Source of the DNA: Yuukianura sp. NJ FZ-2021
Taxonomy: Eukaryota
Length of the DNA stretch: 64,000 bases
Direction of reading: 5' to 3'
NCBI GenBank assembly: GCA_046563655.1
Contig: CM102284.1
Span: forward strand, 4,588,001-4,652,000
Below the pieces are notes generated by a model. It made no database searches and was not told the DNA's origin. It saw only the letters and a program-made list of their open reading frames with translations. Of this stretch, positions 25,687 through 64,000 are shown piece by piece; position 1 is the stretch's first letter; each line of letters starts with the position of its first letter. Made by a program: the position numbers and the translations under genes.

Positions 25687-27085
25687 TTAGTCCAATTCTA
25701 TTCTCTGTCGCAAAACGGATGGGACTCCACAATGATTTTTGGCTTGTTTAGCCTTAGCAACTGCCAATTCAAAGTCCTTCATTGAGATTGCTCTGAGGGC
25801 CATTGGGCCATGAAGATGATCCTCCGACACTTCAACTTCATTATCTTCTGCCGATGTCCTGGAGAAGAAGTTCAACTTCTGAAACCAGCTACTGCTGGAG
25901 GAAGCTCCAGCAGTTCTATTAAAAACAAAACAAAACAAGTTGTATACGGGAAAAGTAGACAGTTTAATTAAAAATTAGAAGAGTACCCGTTAGTGTAGCC
26001 TGCTGTTCCTCCAGTTTTGGCTGAAGCAATCATTGCGTCACGACTAAGTGATAAATCAGCCAAGCAAGAAACTGCTGCTGCTCGCGCAACTTCCTTCAAA
26101 TCCGATCCGGAGAATCCCTCCGTCATTTCTGCCAACTTGTTCAAGTCAAAGTCACTTGCAAGTGTTTCATTTCGGAGTGTCAAGTTGAGGATGTGTTTCC
26201 GTTGGTTGACGTCTGGAACTGGAATATAAAATTTTGAGACCATTCTTCGCAAAATTGCTCCATCCATGTCCTTAGGACGATTAGTGGCTCCCATTACGAT
26301 GACTGTTTTCTTTGGATCTGTGATGAGACCATCCCAGAGCGACATGAACTGCGCCTTCATCATAGCCGTAACTTCATGATCTTGCGATGCTCGAAGACGC
26401 AACAGTGAATCAATTTCATCAATAAAGATGATACACGGTTGTATCTTCTCGGCTAAACTGAAGACGGCAGACGTTAGCTTTTGTGACTCTCCATACCACT
26501 TGTCTGTAAGGACGGAAACATCGAGATTGATGAACCAACATTTCGCTTCCTTTGCCATAGCTTTCGCGATCAAGGTTTTTCCAACTCCTGGAGCTCCGTA
26601 TATCAAAACTCCTACAAACGAACAAAAAACCATGTCAAAATGTTCAAATAGGCGTTTCCGAAGATGTAGTTCCGGTTCCGCAGCAACGTACCTTTCGGAG
26701 GTTGAATTAAACGTGAGAACTTGACCTTTTGGTGAGCTAGTATAGGATAGATGACTGTTTGCTTGAGTTGATCGATTACGTCGTCCAATCCAGCAACATC
26801 AGCCCAGGACACGTTGAGGTGTTGAGGATCAACAAGATGACTAGCAATCATGACTTCATACTCGTTGAGCCGAATGTCCTTGACCCCAAGTCGATTCATG
26901 ATTTCTTTAGCCTTGACCTGCGCTTTTTGCTTCTGTTGATAGGTAGGGTCAGCATGACGAAGAGCCCAGCGAACTAAGTAGAACGTCAAGAATCCAATTG
27001 CTCCAGCGCGAATAAGTGCAAAAACGATTTCTCGTTTCGCTGGTAATTCTCCTTGAACTTCAACCTTGGATAAGACACCCGTCAT
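25687..27085 (-). CDS. ATAD1: AAA ATPase ATAD1/Msp1 (outer mitochondrial membrane helix extractase), 3 exons
   Basis: N-terminal TM, LNEYEVMIASHLVDP, Walker A GAPGVGKT, pore loop KWYGE, Walker B IIFIDE, DHEVTAMMKAQFM, GATNRP, GFSGSDL. Confidence 0.95.
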
Positions 27086-27354
27086 TCTTGAATTTTCTTA
27101 GTTGTTAATTTTAAAGACTAATGGCATGGAATAATAACCTCGAACGGGCTACAATTCAATGACCTTTTATCTTAATCGTTCGAAATTTCTTTCGCAAGCC
27201 AAATCAGCTGCTGATGAAATGACAAGATAAAGGCTAACTTTAAAAGAATTTTACAGAAGAATTTTGAAAAAAAAATTAAGAGAGATATAAACTGGATTTA
27301 TTACAGTTTATATTTTATTAGTAAGTTAACTTAAATTCAATTGTCACGTGTTTC

Positions 27355-27675
27355 GGTTGAAGTAAACTTTGAGGCAGTCCGTTGTACCCCCCAAATTGCA
27401 TTGTATTGTACCCCCCCATTATAATCCGTGGCGGCAATTTCAAAAAAGCAACAAATCGCCCCCTCTATTGTTGGTTAGGTTAGGTTAGGTTAACATAACC
27501 TAACTAAGGACGGGGGGTACAGTTCATAAATCTATGCGCAACTGAACAAATCAACAGTAGAGGGGGCGATGTGTTGTTTTTTTGAATTTGCCGCCACGGA
27601 TTATAATGGGGGGGGGGGGTACAATACAATGCAATTTGGGGGGTACAACGGACTGCCTCAAAGTTTACTTCGACC
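27355..27675. mobile_element. MITE, 321 bp, about 125-bp TIRs, GG...CC termini, 8-bp TSD (MULE- or Merlin-type non-autonomous DNA transposon)
   Basis: Arms GGTTGAAGTAAACTTTGAGGCAGTCCGTTGTACCCCCC... and ...GGGGGGTACAACGGACTGCCTCAAAGTTTACTTCGACC. Direct repeat CGTGTTTC at 27347-27354 and 27676-27683. (TTAGG)n in the centre. Confidence 0.92.
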
Positions 27676-28950
27676 CGTGTTTCTTTGAGAAGGAATTGAG
27701 GCTGCGTACGCAAATGCGACACATTTCACTACCGTAATTTGACATAAGGAGTCACTATTATTATTGTTACCACCTAGTATGAAACTGTTTTCTGAAAAGT
27801 ACTGATGAGACAGCAATAGTAGGTAACAGGTGGTAACAAAAAAAAACACTTCAACTCAATGATTTGGTATTTTACGTTGTGCAGAGAATGAATGCAAATA
27901 CTTATCCTAATTCCGGAAATTGCTAAAAACACTGTCTACTTGCACGTCTTGAATATTCGCATTTCTCTGCACAACGTAGAAACCCAAATTACTGAAATGA
28001 AGTGCTTCTTTTTGTTAAAGGTTAGCTCTGTTTTGCTTTGTTTTCGAAGGCTTAAGTTCTGGAAAAAAAAGTCTGGAGAAAACTACTTGCCCATTGAAAC
28101 ACTACATGATTCTTTGAGCCTCAAAGTTTGAGGGTTAAAAAAACTCGTTAATTTAAACAGAAGAATTTGAATTTGAATTTTATTTGACCAAATGGTGCCA
28201 TGTTGACAGGTCATGGCGTCTTATACAGTATTGCTTATTCAATTTGCAACTCAGGAGTATTTACAATAGGGAGTAGTGTTGCGAACTTCAACCACGTTTT
28301 AAAAACCTCATAAATTCAGAACAGCGAAATGGCGAAATGGGTGGATGATATAGGACGGTTTTGCCGCCTTTACTTCTACATAGCTTTCTAAATTTTTCTA
28401 CATGAAGATCAATTATCAAATACCCACGTAAAAATTCGGTAAGTTGATTTTTCACTTGAAAAAGCGTTCATAAAACTATAGAATTGTGTTTTGGAAATTG
28501 AACTTTTACAAATTCATTCGGTTTTCGCTTTGGACTTGGACCGTGTTTCATTTGTACAGTTACCGTGACTGTTATTATAAAGGCAGAACGCAGGAGTGCA
28601 TTATTCGTTGTGTCTGCATTTGCCTGGTAATAAGGTGAACGGTTTTGAATCCTACTCACTCTTGGTACTAATTCGCTTTTAATTAGCAATTTAACTGTTC
28701 TTTGTAAGGAGTAGGAGACCCGGTTATTGAAATTCACTGGAACCTTCGACTGGTGTTGGAGGAAGAGCCGTTGGACAGAACTCAAACAGAAGTCAGGAAA
28801 TCCGTTCCTGGTTCTTACATTGGTAACACCAGTACCGTTTCGTAAAGGTCAGCTGTTCCAAAATCGTCATTACGAATAGTCATAAAATTTGTGAATGCAG
28901 TAGGATTTCTTGTCTGATTCACGTTTCTACTACATCTCGGTACTTCTTAG

Positions 28951-34700: not shown

Positions 34701-37235
34701 TGTGCAATCAAAAAATTCTATCAAAATTGACATGAGATAATCATTCAAAGATTCCTTCTCAACCAATTTTCCTGCCAGGTCGACAGCAACATTGATGATT
34801 ATGGCATCTTCAACGGCTGGTTCCAACAAAACGGTTCTCAAGAAATCGACCATTTCACCCCTGGAAAGTCAAAAGTCACTATCGTTCAAGTTATACAGGG
34901 TGTGGCAGCCAAAAGTGGACACCTTAAATTTGTTGTTAGGGGCAACCGACGAAAAAATGGTAAATAATGGGGGGAGAATTTAGCCAAATTCAAAAATTGT
35001 CAAAAGTCAAAACAATTTTTTACCGAAGCGCAAAAAATTTTTGCGCTTCGGTGCAAGTTTCCTCCCAGAGTTACGAAAATAAACAAAATATTTATAATTG
35101 AGGTGTCTACTTTTGGCTGCCACACCCTGTATAATACTCTCAAATAAATAAACTTGTACGTTAGAAGAACTCACCTAACACATTCTTCAAAATTAAGAAT
35201 ATCACATATTTTGAGCGCAATAGAGAAACAGAGACTGGACTCTTGAGCGAAGGAGCATGTACCATCGGCAAGTTTTGCTTTATCACTGCGATGGCGACTC
35301 AGGAGCCTGAAATAATAAAATACATAGTATCAGTTATTAAATATCTGACAATTACTGTATTCCGAAATGTCGAGTCGGCTACTTTTTCAAATAATCTGTA
35401 ACATCACTGGGTTCCGGCAATAGGAGATTAGCGCAGAACGGATTGCTCTTAAATTTGTTACAGAGAAGTAACCACAACTGCGACTTTTCCACTTTTAATT
35501 CATCCAAATGAACCAGCTTCTTCTCAGAAAGAAATCCCCAATCGATAGCTTGATATTCCTTGGAACTTCCCTCCCTACTCAAAATGACAAAATCGCTCAA
35601 TTATAGTGATTAGTCATTAGTAATCGTGTAATGGATTAACCCCAACGCCTAAAGGAACTTACGGGTACAACGCATCAATGACTAGGCGAGCAGTCTTTGC
35701 ATGATAAGCCAATTCCAGTTTCTCAAACAGTACCACCAGATCGTTGTGGCACTGATTCAGCCAAGCCGGTAGAACAGCATGCTCCATAACTTCTCGAACT
35801 CGTCCTAAAATGTGATTCCATTTACATGAACTTTTTTACTCTCTTAATGTCAACGGTTTTCATGTTATGGTGAACTAACCAGATGGCTTTGCTAGGCCGG
35901 ATCGAATTAATAGGAGTTTCTCGTCTTTATCTGCAATTCGATTCAAATCCAATTTTGAAATCTGTACGAAAGCCTCAGCCCGTACCATTTCCGAGGGGTC
36001 TTCGGATTTTTCAATGTACATTGACGTTTTGATGGAAGGGAATTTTGACATCAGAGCAACCGCAGCTCTGCGTGCTTCTGGACTTGGATCGCACTTCAAC
36101 GTGAATGTAAATGCTAAAAAAATGTAAGAAATAATTTGTGATACTCAAATTATTACACAGCATTGGATGGTGTTATACAAGTCGAGTTTCTTACATTCTC
36201 TAGCAGCCAAATTATCATTGAAAATTGGCAAGCAATTCAATGTTGCAATACGAACTGCTGCGACTTTGTCCTACGGTTTCAAAACACTTAAAATGTTTAC
36301 TTTTCAAAAATGAAACTTTGCAGATATTAGTAAAAGCTCCGTACCCGCATTCGTACAAGAACGACTTTTGTTAACAAATCCTCGTGGTACTGCTGAACGA
36401 GTGTGGAGTGTTGTGAGTGGGTCAGGATGTACCGCAACTGTTCCATTATTCGAATTCTTACGTTTGTGTTTTGATCATAATGACACTAGAGAAAATTGAT
36501 ACACAAAGAAATAAAAATGTGGTGGGATATAAGAACGTACTTATTCGTTTAAATCTTCAAACTCACCCGGAAAATGAATTGAAGAATGTGATATAAAATG
36601 GGAAACCGTCCATCCTTCTCGTCTTTTGCAGATGTGTACCCCTTTCCGACACTTACGACGGATGCTTTCATGAATTTTAGCACAGCATCGTGGAATTCAT
36701 TTTTGTCTCCTTTCATGAAAGGAAACGAAATTCGCCACAAGCAGGTGGAAATGAGCTTCTGGTAGTCATTGTCCTATGAAAAAAAATCGATGAACGAAGA
36801 AAAGTCTAAGTTATAACTAACTTTTCTTACTTTTTGTTTTATGTTAGTCGGTTTCTTGCAATAGACCTCCTCCAATTTCTGAATTTGATTTTGCATGTGC
36901 GTGGATTTCCGTGTGGACTGGACATCGTCGATAATTTTCAGTATCAACTGGAACTCAGGGGTGTTGTGGCAGGTAAACAGGTTATAGTCAGATGTCGCCG
37001 AAAACCCGACTTTATTCTTGGGCTGGCCCTTTAATGCCAAATTGACACTTTGCCTCTTCCTTGTCTTGTTCTTCGGTATATTTTTACTGGGCCTTGCTGG
37101 TGCTGTGATGTTGGCAGTAGAAACTACATCATCTTCACTATCAGCTGAATCAACGGGTACGGTGGCAGTGACATTGGTCTGCTTTGCGGTTTCGGCCGCC
37201 TTCTTTTGCTGGGCTTGACGACGTGTGAACGGCAT
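31740..37235 (-). CDS. Cap-G: Condensin I subunit CAP-G (NCAPG), many exons
   Basis: HEAT-repeat pattern VRIRIMEQL, VRMR-DKVAAVR, LKCDPSPEARRAAV, EDPSEMVRAEAF. Large acidic disordered insert, then C-terminal HEAT region (VRSETITLYCKFALLDK, GFHSVVDLIIMY). Acidic tail. Confidence 0.8.
34896..35129. mobile_element. Tc1/mariner-type MITE, 234 bp, inside a CAP-G intron
   Basis: TIRs CAGGGTGTGGCAGCCAAAAGTGGACACC / GGTGTCTACTTTTGGCTGCCACACCCTG flanked by TA on both sides. Confidence 0.92.
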
Positions 37236-60975: not shown

Positions 60976-61481
60976 TAGTAATACTAGTTAACTAGTTCAA
61001 TCATCCAATTTCCCATTACCTGTACAATCAGCCGGATCCTAATCAAAACTAGCCCAGGAAAAGTAAAGTGTTGATGTTGTCACCGTTGCCTTCGTTGTTA
61101 ATTAACGATTAATTGCGCTTGGCTTGAATTGAAGAACTCCGAATTTCCTATTTTCCTTCCGTTTAACTTTCAGTAAGGGCCGTGCAAATACCTTGGATGG
61201 TATAATCATGATTGCCGTATTATAATTTTTTTTCTGTAGTTGTAAACAACAACACATGCAAAACGAACGCGGCGGGCGCGGGACAAGGGGGCAAGGGCAG
61301 TTTTTTATTACATTTATATGGAATTAAAGTATTTTTCTGTGCAATTTAGCAATTTTCAATTCAATTTTAATTTTTCAATTCGAGTGGCACATCCTTAACG
61401 TAAGTCTTTAAACGTTATGGGAATGCTGTTGACAACAAAAACCGAATTATCAATAGTAGTCTAAGACACTGAAGAATAAGT

Positions 61482-63058
61482 TTAGCAGCAGTATTGCGAT
61501 GGAGAGCAAGGGTCAAAATCAAAATGGAGAAAGTTCTGTCAAAAGACATCAAAACGATTTTACAAAATTCCTTTTGAACAAATGAAATTGTGGGGAACTG
61601 ATAAACGATGAACTTACGATGAGGAGCAGCGCCCCCAACATTGTAGCCTTTTGACAAACGTCCCATTCTATTGGAAATCTTGCTCCAAAATTTTCAGTGT
61701 CCGAAAAAACTGGAATTTTGGCCAATTCGAACCAGGCTTCTTTGATTTGTCCAACCCTCTTTTGCTTCTCTTTCGGTTTCTTTTCAGTAACAATTGTGAA
61801 CTCGGATGCACAACAAACACGACATGGAAAGCAAAATGCACAAGAGGATCCTTTGACCTGAACGGTTTCAACGGTACTGGCAAAGGTCAAAGTGTAAATG
61901 GGTTTGCAGCAACAGAACTTTTGAGAAACACTGCCAACTTCTGTTCCGTCTTCCAAGTTAACCCGAACGCCCTAAAATTCAAAATTTTAAATTGCAAAAC
62001 TGAAAACCGTAGAAATTCAAATTCTTTTGAAGTTAACATTTGTCGTTCCCTTACGTTGCAAGCCATGTCTCCGCAGCATGCCACTCCACAGCAACAGCCA
62101 CAAGCGCAAGGTCGCGTCACGTTAAAAATTTTGCGTCCACTAGCATCCAGAACGTAGAATACAAATGGTCGACCGGTTTTCCAGCAGCAAATTTTGCAGT
62201 AGCTGTTGGTTTCGCAGAGCACAAAGAGGCGTTCCCCGTTTTGATCAAAAACGTCATACTTGAGAGCTTCATCGGAAGAAGGAATACCGACTGTGGAACC
62301 AAAACAAAATGGTTGACCTTTTGACCTGAGTTCAACTATTTCTTATACCAATTTTGTATTGACAGAACTTACTTTCCAGTGGACTGTTGTTAATTTTCAA
62401 GATGAAATGAGAAACGTTTTGCAGAATTAAGCCAAGGTCAACTGATGTCGGAGTTGGCATGAAGCTGACTTTCGGCTTATATTCGGCAAAACGGCCACTC
62501 GATTTTTTAAGATTAAAATATCATCTTATATCAACTCTTGGGTGTAGATTCTGAATCTGAAATCCGTTTTTGGCGGTCGCACCTCCTTCTTAGTAAGATT
62601 TATTAATTAAGATTCTAATTAACGATGTGAATTTCACATAAAGAATGAGAATTCCAAGTGTAACCAATGGATACCAAGAATTGTAGTTTGTTATACCCCC
62701 GCGCCGAAGGCGCGCGTTAGGTTTGGTTAGCATTTAACAGCAACAATTTCTAATCTCCATTGGTTACATAATAAAAAATCTCATTCTGTATGTAAAATCC
62801 TCATTAGAATCTTAATTAATGAATCTTACCAAGAAGGAGGTGTGACCGCCAAAAACGGATTTCAGATTCGGAATCTACACCCAAAAGTTGATATAAAACG
62901 ATATTTTAATCGTAAAAAATCGAGTGGCCGTTTTGCCGAATTTGTTCCCTGACTTTCTTATTCGCATTTTCCTGATTGTTATTTTGGACATCGGGCAACA
63001 CTGGAGGAGTGGTTGGATTCGCGTTCGCCACAACGGTCGGATTCTGCGGCTGCGCCAT
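61482..63058 (-). CDS. Phospholipid scramblase; first coding exon interrupted by a MITE
   Basis: MPTP..LGL N-terminal motif; KYDVFDQNGERLFVLCE; CC..GRPF; Cys-rich palmitoylation stretch CACGCCC; VGSVSQKF; FSDTENFGARFP.EWDVCQKATMLGALLLI(N)F. Confidence 0.88.
62474..62948. mobile_element. MITE, 475 bp, about 200-bp TIRs, GG...CC termini, 9-bp TSD (Mutator-like), inserted in coding sequence
   Basis: Arms ATTCGGCAAAACGGCCACTCGATTTTTT... and ...AAAAAATCGAGTGGCCGTTTTGCCGAAT. Direct repeat CTGACTTTC at 62465-62473 and 62949-62957. Confidence 0.93.
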
Positions 63059-63290
63059 TTCAAACAAGAAACTCCAATTTAGAAACAACTACGGAAAAGT
63101 AATTGTCAAGTCGTCACATCGTGCATGTATCGCATATCCGTCGTCACTGAACGCCCTTGCTTGTTGTGTTTGTCCAGTTGTTTGTTTTGTACACTGGAAA
63201 AAGCGTTGCTAAGATAAAATTATCAAAAAAGTTAAACTTTAGTGCTAAAGATCCATTTATTTCTAGAAGTTCAAGACCTATAAAGTTTAG

Positions 63291-64000
63291 TTACATTGGG
63301 CAATTATGGGCCCATCTTGGAAATGGCGTTACATCTTTGATATTTGATCGTCCTAGGAGTAGCTGAAGTAGTCTGTCAAAGCCTAATCCGAAACCTCCAG
63401 AAGGAACTCCACCGAATTCTCGAAGTTCAAAGTACCAGGCCATGGACTGCTTCAATTTTCCAGAAGGATCCAGTGCCATAACGTTTGAATCCAGTTGAAC
63501 CATGTCGTTCTCCCTTAGACTTCCTCCGCAGAGTTCACCTATGCGAGGCACAAGCAAATCCACAGCTGAAACCTGTAGTTCACAATCAATTAACTCAAAT
63601 CAACATGAATATTATGAGAACGTGCTACTAAATGTTAGTAAAACTAGCTTACCAATTCGGGATCATCGATGCAACGTCTCATGTAAAATGGCTTGATGTC
63701 ACGAGGCCAGTTTACGACAAAAATTGGAGTGTCATCGTTCAGTTTTTCCACAAGAAATAGCTCTTGCTCTCGGTTTAGCCCTTGCCCGTCCAGTATCCGT
63801 GTTCCCATGTTGTCCTCAATCTGCTTTCGGGCTTCATTGAACGTCATGATGGTAAAACGTTTCTTGAGTATTCGCTCCAGGAGGTTCTGTAAATCAGATA
63901 AGTGAAATTTTAAATATGGAAAATTAATCAGCTCAATTAGTTTGATTGCTGCGCACCTTCGTGTCCTTTTGGTCTTCACAGCAGTAGTTCCATTCGCTGC
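63291..64000 (-). CDS. NARS2: Mitochondrial asparaginyl-tRNA synthetase, 3' part (truncated by window edge)
   Basis: PIFVVNWPRDIKPFYM, DLLVPRIGELCGGSLRE, WYFELREFGGVPSGGFGLGFDR, NIKDVTPFPRW. Confidence 0.92.

Follow-up and report, generated by a model that had tools for sequence, protein, structure and literature searches.

The stretch analysed here, called the window, comprises 64,000 nucleotides (nt) of Yuukianura sp. NJ FZ-2021 (assembly GCA_046563655.1, contig CM102284.1, positions 4,588,001 to 4,652,000 of the forward strand). It contains a scramblase gene of four exons on the minus strand (61482-63058), the first exon of which is split by a 475-bp foldback-type miniature inverted-repeat transposable element (MITE). 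The part of exon 1 on the 5' side of the insertion (62958-63058) codes for a P-, N-, Q- and T-rich N-terminal region of low complexity and begins with an ATG at 63058, which we infer to be the start codon. The part on the 3' side (62373-62464, SFMPTPTSVDLGLILQNVSHFILKINNSPLE) holds the start of the conserved domain and an internal ATG at 62460. Exon 2 (62055-62290) matched Pfam PF03803 at profile positions 44-104 (E 1.6e-10, 41.2 bits) and exon 3 (61618-61971) matched it at positions 110-214 (E 4.6e-14, 52.7 bits). Both scores lie above the cut-off of 25.4, and the two exons jointly covered positions 44-214 of 221. Exon 4 (61482-61535) carries the stop codon. The three introns are each 82-83 nt long, with GTAAGT or GTAAGG donors and CAG or TAG acceptors.

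The element occupies 62474-62948 on the minus strand; it is non-coding, has a G+C content of 36% and is nearly wholly self-complementary. It is flanked by a target-site duplication of 9 bp, CTGACTTTC (GAAAGTCAG on the gene strand), the two copies of which are 100% identical. The copy that lies upstream in gene orientation (62949-62957, minus strand) holds a GT at 62953-62952 that had been proposed as a splice donor, and the downstream copy (62465-62473, minus strand) ends in CAG, with its G at 62465, a rival of the AAG proposed as acceptor. The outer inverted arm upstream in gene orientation (62803-62941) is 139 nt long and 94% complementary to its downstream partner (62481-62619), and there are two inner arm pairs as well. 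When the element was compared with its own reverse complement, 81% of the bases were identical over 474 nt. Both ends start with GG, 4 of their first 8 bases differ (GGAACAAA versus GGCTTATA), and from TTCGGCAA inward they match (16 nt compared). The reading frames of the element are interrupted by many stops, and the longest overlapping stop-to-stop frame is 73 aa. No Rfam match at E <= 1 was obtained in 62200-63300, and Tandem Repeats Finder reported no array in 62300-63100, so that the arms are without tandem sub-repeats. Terminal inverted repeats, a duplication confirmed by an empty site, small size and the lack of coding capacity are features of a MITE.

Contigs of four DNA runs were placed on 61300-63300 of the window: X1 and X2, which come from one sample, X5, which has another organism label and belongs to another study, and X6, a metagenome. 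Contigs in X1, X2 and X5 joined 62464 directly to 62949, so that exactly 484 bases are missing and 9 letters can be assigned to either side. The depth of the empty-site contig was 130.8 in X1 compared with approximately 186-188 in the flank contigs, 115.6 in X2 compared with approximately 173-204 in the flanks, and 2.6 in X5. One of the X2 contigs, 154 nt long, consisted of 110 and 44 nt with nothing between them. The single contig from X6 (151 nt) covered exon 3 only and was uninformative for the insertion site. Since the skip of 484 bases has 9 shared letters, the boundaries of the element and its duplication go back to a genuine transposition. A single 9-mer without a footprint indicates a site that was never occupied rather than an excision product, and the presence of the exact empty site in three DNA runs indicates a young insertion that is an allele and has not reached fixation.

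Other differences between the contigs and the window were recorded around the site. A 6-nt difference (63018-63024) is in frame and lies inside a repeated GCGAAC/GCGAAT (Ala-Asn) stretch of the scramblase N-terminus. In the 5' untranslated region (UTR; 63033-63154), two X1 haplotype contigs (depths 89 and 106.5) match neither the window nor one another, and intron 1 contains at least three variants (62319, 62342 and 62354). These haplotype differences indicate that the sequenced material was heterozygous or pooled, and the window itself may be a mosaic or a rare haplotype. An estimate of the filled-allele frequency from contig depths, in which the empty-site contig had 0.6-0.7 of the flank depth, is unreliable, because each contig has one depth and variants are lost.

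Summed contig depth was far greater over the element than in its flanks. This figure, which is not equivalent to copy number, was approximately 5,300-46,700 over the element and approximately 190 in the flanks in X1, and 60-545 over the element and 2-4 in the flanks in X5, so that the ratio of element to flank was roughly 30-250 under both organism labels. Loose contig ends with unrelated flanks started at 62474 and at 62947-62949, the ends of the element, and so also confirm where it begins and stops. Among the contigs listed, those identical to this copy over 117-122 nt were present at multi-copy depth (302.8-1020.7). These results suggest that the element is a member of a young multi-copy family that was recently active. 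Within the 64-kb window no second copy was found: a 29-mer from one end matched itself alone even with as many as 3 mismatches tolerated, and blastn of the element against the window returned the element, its own reverse complement and one 24-nt match with an E value of 0.30. Two scans of metagenome contigs with exact 22-mers from the arms found 0 stretches each, which is a weak negative, as exact words were used and the family is probably species-specific. The 9-bp duplication points to a Mutator/Phantom-like or a Merlin-like transposase, as candidate superfamilies only. Merlin elements produce target-site duplications of 8-9 bp. Gross and Williamson (2011; PMC3169594) give Tm1 and MULE-type transposases duplications of 8-10 bp, mostly 9.

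When the element and one copy of the 9-mer were removed, the coding sequence was 846 nt long, open throughout, and encoded 281 aa, reading ...ANKKVSFMPTP... across the site. Translation of the filled allele without removal ended inside the upstream arm, at ...NKKVREQIRQNGHSIFYD followed by a stop (...HSIFYD and stop). These results bear on an earlier reading of the window, made from its sequence alone and here called the sequence-only reading. It had described a 475-bp element with terminal inverted repeats and a perfect 9-bp duplication that splits the first scramblase exon, and this description stands, as both 9-mers are identical and the boundaries agree with the empty site. Its claims that deletion of the element plus one duplication copy restores ...ANKKVSFMPTP... 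and that unspliced read-through stops at ...HSIFYD were reproduced in the 846-nt open coding sequence and in the translation, respectively. The identification of the gene as a scramblase with intact downstream exons was borne out by the PF03803 matches of exons 2 and 3 and by the open 281-aa frame. The empty allele that it had suggested looking for was found, in the contigs of X1, X2 and X5 that skip exactly 484 bases.

A word-index search for orthologues with exon 3 gave 0 hits among 56 candidates at E <= 0.001. HMMER with the same exon, run against 1.84 billion representative proteins, recovered 120 with E <= 0.001, the best of which was 42% identical. Judged by its sequence, the scramblase is a divergent paralogue. 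It is cysteine-rich and unusually divergent (CCCGVACCGDMACN, CAFCFPCRVCC), and several family motifs are changed, CPPGLEYL of relatives being replaced by DLGLILQNV and IDFMYFE by INFLHFDFD. For a comparison of N-termini, 10 of the 120 matched proteins were aligned. In this alignment the insertion site lies where the low-complexity N-terminus gives way to the conserved domain, and FMPTP of the window aligns with a conserved W-M-P motif. All four of the exon 3 differences listed between contigs and window were synonymous, and the single N-terminal one changed T to P (a small sample). As the listed exon 3 differences are all synonymous, the gene appears constrained: purifying selection seems to act on the domain, and the population seems to retain a working gene.

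The RNA of the duplication and the element was predicted to fold into an almost unbroken hairpin of approximately 230 bp with a free energy of -288.4 kcal/mol. Shuffled sequences reached -102.3 +/- 5.8 kcal/mol (z -32), and 0 of 100 folded as well. On the gene strand the element contains two poly(A)-signal hexamers, ATTAAA at 62910 and AATAAA at 62604, and seven further ATGs ahead of the in-frame ATG at 62460. An unprocessed transcript of the filled allele would thus present an upstream open reading frame (ORF) of 50 codons, then the hairpin of approximately 230 bp, seven ATGs and the two hexamers. Without removal at the RNA level the allele would be expected to behave as a null or a strong hypomorph, and its product could be lost through nonsense-mediated decay, blocked scanning or processing of double-stranded RNA. 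The reference assembly would have captured the interrupted haplotype by chance.

Taken together, we consider it rather probable that the window carries a recent, unfixed insertion allele of a multi-copy foldback-type MITE (475 bp, 9-bp duplication), which is null or hypomorphic without RNA-level removal. The insertion is probably disruptive, and the element is not an established intron. Several points weigh against this reading. None of the contigs listed, in any run, bridged the filled junction from flank into element, and all listed contigs lacked 6 nt that the window has at 63018 (181.7/181.7 in X1, 176.7/176.7 in X2 and 2.6/2.6 in X5), so the window haplotype may be rare or absent in X1, X2 and X5. 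Contigs lose rare variants, and the absence of the filled junction from those listed is therefore no proof that it does not occur. The size of the family was read from summed depths, with the limit given above. A start of translation at 62460 would put the element in the 5' UTR. The insertion is located in a poorly conserved part of the protein that could probably accommodate a short in-frame remnant, so that rescue is conceivable, and the element may be removed efficiently from the mRNA.

The last of these points corresponds to a functional insertion allele, in which the springtail removes the hairpin MITE from its mRNA, either through an arthropod form of SOS splicing or through the GT of the duplication and the AG of the element. 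We regard such an allele as unlikely, though worth serious consideration. If the allele is rescued, excision directed by the inverted repeats would be more likely than use of the weak GT..AG pair by the spliceosome. In SOS splicing, an excision directed by inverted repeats and independent of the spliceosome, pairing of the arms would be recognised, the RNA would be cut near the repeat ends and the pieces would be joined by RTCB, and enough in-frame products could keep the scramblase functional. By analogy with the described cases this would be a plausible but, in our judgement, still unlikely fate of the transcript. The almost unbroken hairpin predicted for the transcript, the exonic position of the element and the location of the site between a low-complexity N-terminus and a conserved domain all fit it. 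A hairpin of this length, on the other hand, may be diced in insects. According to Zhao et al. (2025; PMC12779559), repeat pairing is necessary and sufficient, and function is rescued at poorly conserved sites only. The process, however, is known from C. elegans and human cells alone and not from arthropods, and it is imprecise, with many out-of-frame products (PMC12779559). Recent exonic insertions of DNA transposons are rare in C. elegans and seemingly purged despite SOS splicing (PMC12779559).

A second alternative places the start of translation at ATG 62460 (MPTPTSV...), either normally or on transcripts of the filled allele that start in or after the element, so that the whole scramblase domain would be made. 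This ATG is in frame and only 5 nt downstream of the duplication, the sequence upstream of it is low-complexity and unalignable with relatives, and by our own estimate an upstream open frame of approximately 47 codons arises by chance in about 1 of 10 cases. However, the methionine corresponds to the internal M of the conserved W/F-M-P motif, which follows long Pro-rich N-termini in the 10 aligned relatives, and it is probably no start. The indel in the upstream ORF is 6 nt long and in frame, compared with indels of 1 and 3 nt just upstream of ATG 63058, which weakly fits a coding N-terminus. Transcripts that start at the native promoter carry the hairpin and seven ATGs ahead of 62460, and no evidence of a promoter was found within the element. 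We judge a start at 62460 to be quite improbable.

Huff, Zilberman and Roy are said to have described, in 2016, Introner elements as transposon-derived spliceosomal introns, and the sequence-only reading had seen the insertion either as an intron gain of this kind or as a recent disrupting insertion. The second part is upheld by the empty site in three DNA runs, while the first is disfavoured by weak sites and by the ease with which chance produces such a configuration (5-32%). The donor AAGAAA/GTCAGG and the AG at the element end that it had named do exist. With the donor G at 62953 and the acceptor G at 62476, 478 nt would be removed with a net change of +6 nt, in frame, leaving PK in the protein (NKK-PK-VSFMP). 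The acceptor AG (62476-62477 on the minus strand, ...GAATATAAG/CC) lies 2 nt inside the element end. This pair is the best of eight GT..AG pairs that restore the frame, and it alone has a small net change; its donor agrees with the consensus at 4 of 7 positions, compared with 1-2 in the others. The AG-bearing end lies downstream, and the hairpin would bring both splice sites together. Gozashti et al. (2022; PMC9860276) describe Introners with 3-9 bp duplications and terminal inverted repeats, which are present in some animals (copepods).

Nevertheless, the sites are poor. The donor AAA/GTCAGG has C at +3 and A at -1, and the acceptor ATAAG/CC is an AAG whose pyrimidine tract is poor (0.58 over 19 nt), as the sequence-only reading had already conceded in calling it weak, whereas the real introns of the gene are 82-83 nt long with GTAAG donors and CAG or TAG acceptors. 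A stronger CAG acceptor is present 11 nt further downstream (G 62465), and with the same donor it would remove 489 nt and cause a frameshift of -5. The first 30 bases of the element hold no GT, so the donor depends on an accident of the target sequence. The expectation by chance was obtained from 17,890 simulated insertions, in which 13 long ORFs of the window received the element in one or the other orientation together with a 9-bp duplication; pairs no more than 12 nt from the ends were considered. An in-frame, stop-free GT..AG pair with any donor appeared in 5,686 of them (31.8%), and in 955 (5.3%) the donor of such a pair agreed with the consensus at 4 or more of 7 positions, as well as or better than the one observed. 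The observed orientation yielded in-frame pairs more often (3,645 of 8,945) than the reversed one (2,041 of 8,945), which counts in favour of a nascent intron. Given frequencies of 5.3-31.8%, however, the in-frame pair is no evidence of design or selection. With splice signals weaker than those of ordinary introns, an in-frame configuration within chance, a donor supplied by the target and an insertion that is not fixed, a nascent intron, as far as the letters of the site allow a judgement, is very doubtful.

An assembly artefact, or a somatic event without a germline allele, would agree with the empty form of all site-crossing contigs and with the presence of the window's 6-nt variant at 63018 in none of those listed, but it is extremely improbable, since a perfect 9-bp duplication exactly at the family ends is a signature of transposition and contigs lose rare variants.

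Beside the scramblase gene, at the end of the window, lies the 3' end of an asparaginyl-tRNA-synthetase-like gene on the minus strand (stop codon 63291; Pfam tRNA-synt_2, E 3.6e-18). Other inverted-repeat elements were found elsewhere in the window. At 34891-35134 lies a 244-bp MITE with 37-nt terminal inverted repeats of 95% complementarity (TATACAGGGTGTGGCAGCC...) and what appear to be TA flanks. It is inserted in an ordinary intron of a minus-strand gene, with the donor ...TTAG/GTGAGT near 35176 and the acceptor ...TTTCCAG/GG near 34861. Without this MITE the intron would be approximately 70 nt long, which is the local norm, and it provides an example of the usual harmless intronic MITE. 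A second foldback-like element (27355-27675) is located upstream of an ATAD1-like gene, with arms of 63 nt (98% complementary) and 89 nt (84% complementary) and runs of poly-C and poly-G. Its centre contains (CCTAA)n, approximately 3.5 units near 27470-27490; CCTAA is complementary to TTAGG, the telomeric repeat of arthropods. A further inverted-repeat element of 184 bp was found at 27834-28017. The ATAD1/Msp1-like AAA ATPase gene itself (25968-27097) is 83-88% identical to proteins of the springtails Allacma fusca and Orchesella dallaii and of soil metagenomes, with none closer. On this similarity rests the assignment of the window to a springtail-like hexapod.

As seen here, the scramblase gene carries a young MITE insertion that is polymorphic, which is nothing out of the ordinary. 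Caution is nevertheless called for, as the reference carries an interrupted allele of a maintained gene that annotators could call a pseudogene or for which they could invent an intron. Filled and empty alleles seem to coexist, and the locus is thus a natural test case for the RNA-level removal of exonic transposons in an arthropod. The type of junction would discriminate between the two routes, a non-GU-AG junction indicating the SOS type and a GU-AG junction the Introner type. Should the functional allele prove true, the locus would be a still-segregating snapshot, in an animal, of the first step from an exonic transposon to a tolerated intervening sequence.

Exonic DNA elements that are taken out of transcripts have precedents. 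In the late 1980s Wessler and others reportedly showed that cryptic splice sites in the ends of Ds, dSpm and Mu allow these elements to be removed from maize pre-mRNAs. The maize cases likewise involve an exonic DNA element that can be removed imprecisely from the transcript, giving leaky alleles, but they are said to rest on RNA data and on recurrent splice sites in the ends, whereas the present element offers one AG and is known from DNA. Introners (Gozashti et al. 2022; PMC9860276) resemble the element in being non-autonomous, in having terminal inverted repeats and a short duplication and in lying within coding sequence. As in those cases (PMC9860276), one candidate site is supplied by the element end and the other by the duplicated target, and the frame would be kept on removal. 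However, Introners are defined by many copies spliced in unrelated genes, whereas here one copy was seen in its gene context, the candidate sites are weak, the insertion is polymorphic and the configuration is within chance.

With respect to structure, foldback elements are the closest comparison. The FB element of Drosophila is a foldback element with tandem sub-repeats in its arms, unlike the element described here. Tm1 of root-knot nematodes, a Foldback element of the Phantom-Mutator type, has a 9-bp duplication like this element (PMC3169594) and is likewise composed almost wholly of long inverted arms. In both, the outermost end bases are dissimilar (in Tm1 the 7-bp motifs A1 and A2), and MITE-like non-coding members exist, although the arms of the present element are without the tandem sub-repeats of Tm1 (PMC3169594).

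The closest system for the possible fate of the transcript is SOS splicing. Exonic Tc1, Tc3 and Tc4 are excised from C. elegans mRNA, and reporters with the mariner element HSMAR2 were used in human cells (PMC12779559). Excision occurs mostly at non-GU-AG sites near the repeat ends and depends on AKAP17A, CAAP1 and RTCB, factors described there as conserved from nematode to human (PMC12779559). Non-autonomous elements and unrelated inverted repeats are also substrates, intronic insertions are not excised, and rescue requires an in-frame product and a poorly conserved site (PMC12779559). The insertion in the scramblase gene likewise places a DNA transposon with pairing inverted repeats in a coding exon at a poorly conserved position, and it is non-autonomous, like known substrates (PMC12779559). 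Its hairpin is far longer than the 54-nt repeats of Tc1 (PMC12779559). It differs in belonging to an arthropod, a group from which no such system is known, and in being seen at the DNA level. By this analogy, SOS splicing fits the anatomy of the element better, and would be a more plausible rescue, than an Introner-like intron.

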